This document shows positions 9,005 to 11,200 of a DNA stretch of 64,000 bases, piece by piece. The notes beneath the pieces are model-generated. The model saw only the letters and a program-made list of their open reading frames with translations, made no database searches and was not told the origin of the DNA. Within the stretch, counting starts at the first letter, position 1; each line of letters starts with the position of its first letter. Made by a program: the position numbers and the translations under genes. Source of the DNA: an uncultured cyanobacterium (lineage in GTDB: Bacteria; Cyanobacteriota; Cyanobacteriia; CAKZMO01); the NCBI GenBank assembly GCA_963719515.1, contig CAVRCJ010000010.1, positions 768,001-832,000 on the forward strand, in the 5' to 3' direction.

Positions 9005-10306
9005 TCACGTGAATACTCCCGACGTTCTTCCTGCGGAAGCGCTTTGCGAACATCCTACGGATAGAGCGCGGGCTTCATCGGTCACCCGATGAGTTTCCTG
9101 CTTCTGGGCCAGTTGGCTAGATATGGCTTCCCACATCCCCGCTACCTCGACTCCACAGGCAATTTGAATACCCGAAATTCCACGGGCGTTGATGACTTGA
9201 GCAGCGGCAATATCTCTCGGCTTGAGCGACCCACATTCATGACACCGATGAACGCGATCGCCCAACGATTTTTTGACCACAGCGCCGCAGTCTGGGCACT
9301 CCTGAGAAGTACCATAAGCGTCAACCTTGCCGTAATAGACGCCGCGCTTGAAGCACACCCACGGCAAGACCTGGTTTATGAACTGCCCCAAGCCAGCATC
9401 AAGAGTGTGTTTACCCAGCATCCCTTTCGCCATGATGCGAAAGTCAAGGTCTTCTACGAAGATGATCTGGGCCTGGTCACACAGCTTGTGGGCCAGCTTG
9501 AATTGCCAGTCAAGGCGGCAAGCTGCTATCTGCTCATGTACCCGTCCAATTCTTCCAATCAGCTTGGCGCGGTTATTCGAGCGCCGCTGCTTATTCTTCA
9601 GTCTGCGTTGCAGCAATTTAAGCTTGCGTTGCAGCTCACCAAAAAAGCGCGGGCGCTCTACCTGCAAGCCGTTGGAAGTGGACAGGAAATACTCGAGCCC
9701 GACGTCAATGCCGATGCTATGCCCAGCGGGAACGACATCAGGCACATTGACATCGGCTTGAATGCATAGGGTAGCGTACCACCCTGAATGCTTTTTGATT
9801 ATGCGCACCGTCTTTACTTTGAATCCATCAGGGATAGGGCGGTGCAGAACGATGCCCATCGTGCCCAGCTTAGGCAACTTGATTTGGCTACCCGTCACCG
9901 GGTTTTCCTTGAACTGCGGAAAGAGGAACGAGCGGTACTGCCCAAACTTCTTGAAGCGCGGGAAACCGTGGCCTCTCTCCTTCCTCGCAGCAAATGCTGC
10001 CTCTACCCTGCGAATAGGCTCTTGAAGCACCTGAGACTGCACGTCCTTCAGGTGAGGAAATATCTTCTTAGCCGCAGTCAGCGCATTTTGCTGTTTGTAG
10101 TAGTCAGGATATGGCGCGTCCGCCGCAATGATGTACTCCGATTGAAGCGAGCAGGCATTAGCCGCACAGCTTCTCGACTTTATCCAATCCTTGCGTTTGC
10201 GCAGCGCATAGTTGTAGACGCCACGACAGGTCTCAAGCCAACAGACCATACGGGCTTCCTGCTCAACAGACGGATAAATTCTGTAGGAGTAGTTCAAGGT
10301 CAACAC
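9005..10306 (-). CDS. tnpB: RNA-guided endonuclease TnpB (IS200/IS605 family)
   Basis: 433 aa with N-terminal YRIYP, RuvC-I GIDVG, RuvC-II VEDL, zinc finger CPDC/CHEC and RuvC-III RDIAAA. The D-E-D triad is intact. Confidence 0.95.
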   Translation of the reverse strand: MLTLNYSYRIYPSVEQEARMVCWLETCRGVYNYALRKRKDWIKSRSCAANACSLQSEYIIAADAPYPDYYKQQNALTAAKKIFPHLKDVQSQVLQEPIRRVEAAFAARKERGHGFPRFKKFGQYRSFLFPQFKENPVTGSQIKLPKLGTMGIVLHRPIPDGFKVKTVRIIKKHSGWYATLCIQADVNVPDVVPAGHSIGIDVGLEYFLSTSNGLQVERPRFFGELQRKLKLLQRRLKNKQRRSNNRAKLIGRIGRVHEQIAACRLDWQFKLAHKLCDQAQIIFVEDLDFRIMAKGMLGKHTLDAGLGQFINQVLPWVCFKRGVYYGKVDAYGTSQECPDCGAVVKKSLGDRVHRCHECGSLKPRDIAAAQVINARGISGIQIACGVEVAGMWEAISSQLAQKQETHRVTDEARALSVGCSQSASAGRTSGVFT

Positions 10307-10818: not shown

Positions 10819-10873
10819 TGGAAGATAGGAGATTCTTTGGCGTAGCCTTTCCGTAAGGAAATACTCCTGACCT
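10819..10873 (-). repeat. Degenerate copy of the tRNA-Ala 3' end with a hairpin insertion in the T-loop
   Basis: TGGAAGATAGGAGATTC-[27 nt]-ACTCCTGACCT compared with the tRNA sequence TGGAGAATAGGAGATTC-GA-ACTCCTGACCT (plus strand). Confidence 0.8.
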
Positions 10874-10887
10874 GGTATGGTGCGGGA

Positions 10888-10960
10888 TGGAGAATAGGAG
10901 ATTCGAACTCCTGACCTCTGCGGTGCGATCGCAGCACTCTACCAGCTGAGCTAATTCCCC
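10888..10960 (-). tRNA. trnA: tRNA-Ala (anticodon CGC)
   Basis: GGGGAATTAGCTCAGCTGGTAGAGTGCTGCGATCGCACCGCAGAGGTCAGGAGTTCGAATCTCCTATTCTCCA: 73 nt, cloverleaf, G3-U70 pair, anticodon arm CTGCG-ATCGCAC-CGCAG. Confidence 0.97.
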
Positions 10961-11200
10961 ACGCTATACAGGCGATCTTACCGCAGTCTCTGCGATGCGA
11001 CCGACCTTCGGTAACCCTTCGGGAACGCAGCACTCTACCAGCTGAGCTAATTCCCCACGCTATACAGGCGATCTTACCGCAGTCTCTGCGATGCGACCGA
11101 CCTTCGGTAACCCTTCGGGAACGCAGCACTCTACCAGCTGAGCTAATTCCCCATGCTATACAAGCGATCTTACCGCAGTCTCTGCGATGCGACCGACCTT
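10930..11200 (-). repeat. Tandem repeat with 96-bp period: three 79-bp units (tRNA leader plus first 31 nt of tRNA) and two identical 17-bp linkers
   Basis: Units at 10930-11008, 11026-11104 and 11122-11200; the last differs at 2 positions. Linker CGGTAACCCTTCGGGAA at 11009-11025 and 11105-11121. Confidence 0.97.

Follow-up and report, generated by a model that had tools for sequence, protein, structure and literature searches.

How the small dispersed repeats (SDRs) of cyanobacteria, at 21–27 nt the smallest mobile repeats known, change position has been an open question since 2008, and the part played by the octamer HIP1 is still debated. In the family SDR5, a structure of two hairpins is conserved over sequence, as Elhai et al. 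are said to have described in 2008. Elements that integrate into tRNA genes are a second point of comparison; their attB site can lie in the anticodon loop. Passages of the published work place the insertion of SDR5 between bases 3 and 4 of HIP1 (PMC4390886), give its length as 21 nt (PMC13756078) and report that SDR-like repeats were found nowhere outside the Nostocaceae (PMC5861425). Bertels and Rainey treat SDRs as a possible case of a REP/REPIN–RAYT system, and cyanobacterial subclass 2.4 genes are described as often having REP insertions (PMC3116915, PMC6006769).

Here we describe a locus in a window of 64,000 nucleotides from an uncultured cyanobacterium (GenBank contig CAVRCJ010000010.1; the genome is called G000 below), in which a tandem repeat stands before a tRNA-Ala(CGC) gene. 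Judged by its sequence, the array is a complete SDR5-type insertion in the split HIP1 of spare copies of this tRNA. The best explanation, to which we give a probability of about 0.55, is a trap and shuttle, anchored at the tRNA, for a micro-element of the SDR5 type. The tRNA-anchored, exchangeable arrays are new in that literature searches did not find them; no publication on SDR-split tRNA copies was found, and Elhai et al. 2008 with its supplements may mention tRNA targets.

Anatomy of the array at tRNA-Ala(CGC)

The repeat occupies window positions 10930–11200 (period 96, 2.8 copies as assembled, 98% matches, score 528) directly upstream of the minus-strand tRNA-Ala(CGC) (10960–10888); the tandem duplication to which a sequence-only reading of the window had pointed is real. 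In this genome the array starts 30 nt past the stop codon of the upstream gene. A full unit of 96 bp consists of a 31-nt tRNA 5′ half, a 24-nt insert, a 15-nt stub and a 26-nt tail. The features are as follows.

11194..11200, minus strand: unit 0, 5′-truncated; the insert's last 7 nt, beginning right after the G of the second GAA loop
11179..11193, minus strand: unit 0 stub, decayed tRNA positions 32–46
11153..11178, minus strand: unit 0 tail, 26 nt, including TAAGAT; 2 positions unlike the other two tails
11122..11152, minus strand: unit 1 tRNA-Ala(CGC) 5′ half, 31 nt, equal to the intact gene and ending at GCG of HIP1
11098..11121, minus strand: unit 1 insert, 24 nt, SDR5-type; TT, a 3-bp C(GAA)G hairpin and a 5-bp C(GAA)G hairpin, partly decayed
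11083..11097, minus strand: unit 1 stub, HIP1 right half and tRNA positions 32–46, decayed, 12/15
11057..11082, minus strand: unit 1 tail, with the −10-like TAAGAT 14 nt ahead of the next G1
11026..11056, minus strand: unit 2 tRNA 5′ half
11002..11025, minus strand: unit 2 insert, 24 nt
10987..11001, minus strand: unit 2 stub
10961..10986, minus strand: unit 2 tail, adjoining the intact tRNA
10888..10960, minus strand: intact tRNA-Ala(CGC), with HIP1 spanning anticodon stem and loop
10819..10884, minus strand: downstream decayed copy of the tRNA 3′ half, near-identical in G004
10837..10861, plus strand: second SDR-type insert, 25 nt, reversed, in the T-loop of the downstream copy

Examination of the units bears out that the tRNA 5′ half ends at GCG of HIP1 and is followed by a two-triloop sequence, an SDR5-type element at GCG^ATCGC. 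This insert, earlier put at 22 nt, is 24 nt long and ends ...GAAGGTCG (11121–11098 and 11025–11002); a dispersed element at G000:C11 ends in the same GAA–GGTCG hairpin, and 24 nt is the length of 38 of the 47 distinct anticodon-site inserts in related loci. What follows it had been taken for the upstream sequence restarting 48 nt before the tRNA. Instead, a decayed continuation of the tRNA follows: the stub GTCGCATCGCAGAGA matches the tRNA ATCGCACCGCAGAGG at 12 of 15 nucleotides (positions 32–46; binomial p ~ 3e-5), and the real restart is 26 nt before the tRNA. The stub still reads (A/T)TCGCACCG in relatives and (A/T/G)TCGCAC in same-genus relatives; the HIP1 right half, decayed to GTCGC in the window, is ATCGC or TTCGC in relatives. 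Because the tRNA continues past the insert, we conclude that HIP1 was split by a complete SDR5-type insertion, not by one aborted and then rejoined by microhomology. The proposal of an aborted insertion does not agree with the 3′ side of HIP1 being present after the insert, and the hint of target-primed insertion goes with the joint from which it was drawn. The motif AAGGT does begin the partial 5′-most unit, as had been noted, but it is no microhomology joint: it is seen twice because that unit is a truncated copy of the insert that starts inside the second hairpin. By eye, the truncation point matches in G004 and G003, the start being at the same loop position in G000 and G004 and about so in G003.

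The tails are relevant to how the tRNA is expressed. TAAGAT is present in each unit, as predicted, and lies 14 nt before G1; a TAnnnT box is found 10–14 nt before G1 in 11 of 12 unit-free loci. Given this spacing, the tail of unit 2 is likely the promoter or leader of the intact tRNA. As to the suggestion that the units may supply extra promoters, TAAGAT has the −10-like spacing of unit-free relatives; a scan for consensus promoters and terminators returned 0 hits. The tail can also be read in a second way, as an antisense copy of the anticodon arm rather than a duplicated promoter or leader, and the first 15 nt of the unit 1 tail match the antisense of that arm at 13 of 15 positions. Tails of types B–D, from other genera, start with a fold-back of the stub, unlike the upstream promoter; the tails of the four unit types may have separate origins.

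The host is rich in HIP1, GCGATCGC being its top palindromic octamer (~7,750 copies in 5.28 Mb). Among 45 ARAGORN calls in the genome, only tRNA-Ala(CGC) has adjacent partial copies, and it is the only credible tRNA with a HIP1, the one other match being a non-canonical call. G004 likewise has, after the gene, a decayed tRNA 3′ half with a reversed T-loop insert. About 500 bp downstream of the tRNA lies a TnpB-family gene (433 aa, window 9005–10306, minus strand; NF040570, 251 bits), for which no link to the array was seen. Elsewhere, at a contig end (G000:C15:164390-164431), 42 bp from the 3′ part of tRNA-Val(GAC) are copied exactly, much as the remnant of an integration site would look.

The insert family and a candidate enzyme

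A search for further copies of the 22-mer in the genome, at up to 3 mismatches, returned only the two in the array; the family is visible by structure alone. A structural scan of the genome found 21 strict TT–hairpin–hairpin elements, while three controls gave 2, 1 and 0. A perfect HIP1 holds only 1 of the 21; among the rest are elements within inverted repeats and elements nested in the loop of another; together with the T-loop insert, these same-structure elements contradict the idea that the family occurs only within HIP1. Many of the dispersed two-hairpin inserts have a C-rich/G-rich inverted repeat, instead of a HIP1, around them and lie at its centre (G000 C5, C6, C7, C8 and C11). In seven copies of a tnpB-like gene (G000 C3, C5, C6, C10, C11, C13 and C15), the reading frame contains a common two-hairpin stretch of SDR type, apparently inserted in frame and spread together with the IS.

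The expectation that structural variants would be found inside split HIP1 elsewhere proved correct, with one perfect case in this genome and, for a fixed 24-nt pattern, 26 matches in 15 of 161 genomes of the class (control 0; stems mostly paired by eye). A plain genome search for GCG-N(n)-ATCGC gave no excess at 21–24 nt, its counts tracking codon periodicity. The context of 21 of the 26 matches (20 loci) was inspected, and 14 of these loci are overlapped by open frames of at least 100 codons. A plasmid of Nostoc punctiforme carries four 21-nt inserts in split HIP1 with the same layout, which start like type-C units; the 21-nt form was met in this plasmid only.

The stems of the units covary. 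In 23 aligned units the three hairpins are 93.8% paired, and two-sided changes occur at 8 of 14 pairs, a result found in 0 of 500 shuffles, which ignore relatedness; self-correction of hairpins can mimic such covariation. Nested inserts sit after the first loop G (L058, L067 and three sites in G000). Ten distinct reversed T-loop inserts were found; a generic search for 25-nt insertions in the T-loops of other tRNAs gave 256 matches, at or below the control level.

The one perfect HIP1 insert of the genome, a 24-nt two-hairpin element, lies in frame in a RAYT-like gene (L102; G000:C1:228238-228780, minus strand; NF047646, 61 bits, below the cut-off of 80). This gene is flanked by REP-like repeats of a sequence other than the insert's. 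The 8 residues of the insert are missing from its orthologue in G003 (85% identical), but the site there is no clean, empty HIP1. Another RAYT gene, this one with a full score, is present at G000:C10:121030-121550 (L103; minus strand; NF047646, 182 bits). We rejected the RAYT-like protein as an obligatory partner: of the 15 genomes with inserts, 9 yielded such a protein, as did 52 of the 146 others (p 0.09), and the query used found no relative in the remaining 6 insert-positive genomes. Nor did any of the 20 other split-HIP1 insert loci whose context was inspected contain an HUH-like frame.

Distribution and apparent exchange of the arrays

A search with the pattern tRNA half plus insert plus stub returned 22 loci in the genome collection, all of them cyanobacterial and 22 of 22 with the insert architecture, which was also found at 12 of 13 metagenome loci. 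The exception is the metagenome locus L134, where 22 nt of the anticodon region of tRNA-Ala(CGC) are simply duplicated within the gene and a hairpin insert is absent. An even sample of the phylum matched the array pattern in 3 of 401 genomes. With the same architecture in dozens of genomes, the locus is not the recent, one-off 'snapshot' for which it had been taken. We parsed 42 distinct upstream arrays, in three families, of 1–8 units of 67–127 bp: 28 arrays have one unit, seven have two, five have three, one has five and one has eight (the parser passed over one decayed unit, at L076, and part-deleted units). The tRNA-proximal half is identical to the adjacent tRNA in 26 of the 42, and an intact tRNA follows the last unit wherever the contig reaches. 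The tRNA at L057 (G483:C4:1054700-1055700) is preceded by eight tandem 104-bp units, whose variants fall into a block of six and a block of two.

The order of Nodosilinea sp. P-1105 (G428) has the tRNA pattern in 57 of 121 genomes. A strict insert-bearing copy is present in 20 of these (19 upstream, 1 downstream only); among the other 37, 33 were inspected by eye, giving 16 with decayed or part-deleted upstream units, 3 with downstream copies only, 12 with none and 2 unclear, so that 39 of 53 inspected genomes have such a copy. In the window's order, 4 of 4 congeners have an insert-bearing copy, three of them upstream and G003 downstream, together with a truncated upstream piece. Downstream copies are tRNAs clipped at the 5′ end; one to three of them follow each other, and most have an insert at the anticodon as well as a reversed one in the T-loop. 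G024 has two copies, which agree in the first insert and differ in the second, the one in the T-loop. A common sequence just after the tRNA (L031, L040, L041, L062, L068, L075 and others) in many hosts suggests an integrated element or its remnant at the 3′ end.

Units seem to have been swapped between species, as a comparison of loci indicates. Among 25 loci with a common upstream gene, types B, D and none are not clustered on a tree of that gene, which is short (520 nt; 4 of 22 inner branches strongly supported, one branch long). Holding the four type-D hosts (4 of 25 rows) as one clade was rejected (AU p 9.7e-6), as was holding the type-B hosts together (AU p 5.2e-6), a pattern that loss alone could explain for B; one unclear row was ungrouped in the AU test. 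L131 is a mixed D-B-D array and L135 holds two unit types. G411, from a third family (f20), has five D units with a 24-nt insert identical to that of L033, and its congener G035 has a bare tRNA behind the same upstream gene with no units. A mixed ancestral array sorted by loss could partly explain the non-monophyly, but hardly G411. In type B, similarity is 0.79 for inserts and 0.85 for tails, compared with 0.64 at four-fold sites and 0.73 in the promoter stretch; this fits exchange but also selection.

Proposed mechanism, rival readings and known systems

The spare partial copies hold a complete 24-nt insert at GCG^ATCGC with no clear target duplication and with an intact gene beside them, and the unit, in 1–8 tandem copies, is decayed in some lineages and cleanly absent in close relatives. 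Our best reading is that the array is a selfish or neutral insertion trap, in which recombination between the invariant 31-bp halves of the tRNA both multiplies the units and exchanges them. Homologous exchange at the identical halves that bracket the units would add, remove and swap them; we infer exchange there because crossing over in the halves would always leave one whole tRNA, and because they are the only DNA at the locus that is constant across species. Such a length, 31 bp, is short for RecA-type exchange. The insert itself would be delivered by a putative single-strand cut-and-join enzyme, most like HUH/Y1 peel-and-paste, cutting 3′ of CG in short hairpins or palindromes (HIP1, the element's own C-GNA-G loops, the T-loop); joining 3′ of CG at hairpin tips resembles HUH/Y1 chemistry, and the same cut could explain the 5′-truncated unit 0. 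In the window's genus, the tail would hold the working −10 box of the tRNA, and no benefit to the host would be required. Swaps of units between species could take place by transformation, which HIP1 in homology arms raises in Synechococcus PCC 7002, according to a preprint (bioRxiv 10.1101/2024.09.10.611283).

A different account, possible in our view but on the doubtful side, makes the unit a site-specific integrative mini-element of 67–127 nt (insert, stub, tail and new 5′ half) that is excised and joins into GCG^ATCGC of the intact tRNA, which it restores with the 5′ half it brings, units being added at the tRNA end. Every unit does end in a fresh 5′ half with the intact gene always last, mixed arrays exist, and presence and absence are clean behind the same promoter (L026 versus L079). 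Ordered integration would lead one to expect a polarity of decay; it is the most distal unit that has decayed furthest in 5 arrays and the reverse holds in 1, but 8 are equal and the polarity is not significant (p 0.22). Furthermore, wherever the contigs of genome or metagenome loci were long enough to tell, no unit lay anywhere but at the tRNA; viral contigs gave no arrays or units, and plasmids gave tRNA-length matches only, among the 20 of 88 matches listed. Many units are decayed, and no linked enzyme was found. We consider it improbable that the protein-free 67–127-bp cassette of SDR insert and half-tRNA is a mobile element of its own, one that integrates at the anticodon HIP1, rebuilds tRNA-Ala(CGC) from the 5′ half it carries, builds up arrays that are ordered and mixed, passes between families and may be a donor locus for SDR variants via transcription from the tRNA promoter.

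It is unlikely that selection keeps the unit, be it as a promoter module of the tRNA or as a structured leader RNA, made up of the tRNA half and three hairpins, that RNase P would release. The prevalence in inspected genomes of the Nodosilinea order (39 of 53) and type-B conservation above four-fold sites would agree with it, as would the stems that stay paired where loops are no longer GNA and, in this genome, the array's place 30 nt after the upstream stop codon with TAAGAT at promoter spacing. However, decay and internal deletion are scattered through 16 of the 33 fetched genomes of that order and 12 have nothing, and the tails of types B and D have no −10-like box by eye. As RNA, 7 of 8 whole units fold no better than shuffles, with no single common fold, and the same holds for the 22-mer alone (z 0.05); Rfam matched only the tRNA (6 loci). 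In the RNA run X15, coverage is limited to tRNA-like parts and comes from other organisms.

The sequence-only model, in which a break in HIP1 received new DNA that was joined through AAGGT to a point 48 nt upstream in a single recent event, is very improbable: AAGGT at the start of the partial unit speaks for it, and two identical units would imply a recent last duplication, but the tRNA sequence continues after an insert of 24 nt with its own 3′ end, and the same unit in G001, G002, G004 and other families, with the stub of the relatives, refutes it. An assembly artefact, which the identity of units 1 and 2 over 96 nt might suggest, is hardly credible, as homologous arrays occur in many assemblies and, at the level of the joints, 126-nt contigs of three runs (X1, X2 and X3, from one study, one run possibly being the source sample) span the unit joints with 1–3 differences, an X1 piece extending from one insert into the next.

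The locus is one fixed, PCR-sized target struck by many insert variants, and it offers a candidate rule for where the cut falls, namely 3′ of CG, be it in HIP1, in a GNA loop of the element itself or in the T-loop; loci with and without units form natural pairs, and cultured strains carry arrays too. The arrays stand before one tRNA-Ala gene in many filamentous cyanobacteria, where they grow, shrink and decay, a defined place to study such repeats, and they suggest that tiny cassettes can be carried from one cyanobacterial family to another by a tRNA half that does not vary.

Set beside known systems, the locus resembles tRNA-integrating elements in that the anticodon arm is where the tRNA is split and in that duplication of a part keeps one gene whole. 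In contrast to those elements, the upstream duplicated part here is the 5′ half, and the unit, below 130 bp, has no coding room and encodes nothing, no integrase being seen in it. With REP/REPIN–RAYT systems and IS200/IS605 (HUH-Y1), as the source passages describe them, the inserts have in common that they are very short, hairpin-defined and non-autonomous, with no clear target duplication; unlike in those systems, these hairpins were not found to flank any RAYT or TnpA, and the co-occurrence of a RAYT-like protein (9/15) is not obligatory. The likeness is closest to SDR5: the window insert lies precisely between the third and fourth bases of HIP1 and forms two short GNA-triloop hairpins, and here too structure is conserved over sequence, as covariation and the structural scan (21 matches versus 0–2 in controls) indicate. 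Despite these similarities, the insert is 24 nt long with a longer second stem, whereas SDR5 is given as 21 nt in the passages cited; it occurs outside the Nostocaceae, to which those passages assign SDR5; in this genome its family is not confined to HIP1 (1 perfect HIP1 among 21 strict elements); and the window inserts are parts of larger moving units, the tandem half-copies of the tRNA. Strict membership in SDR5 fails on length and HIP1-exclusivity, and we therefore class the insert, set beside SDR5 by description rather than by published consensus, as a 24-nt relative that works like SDR5.
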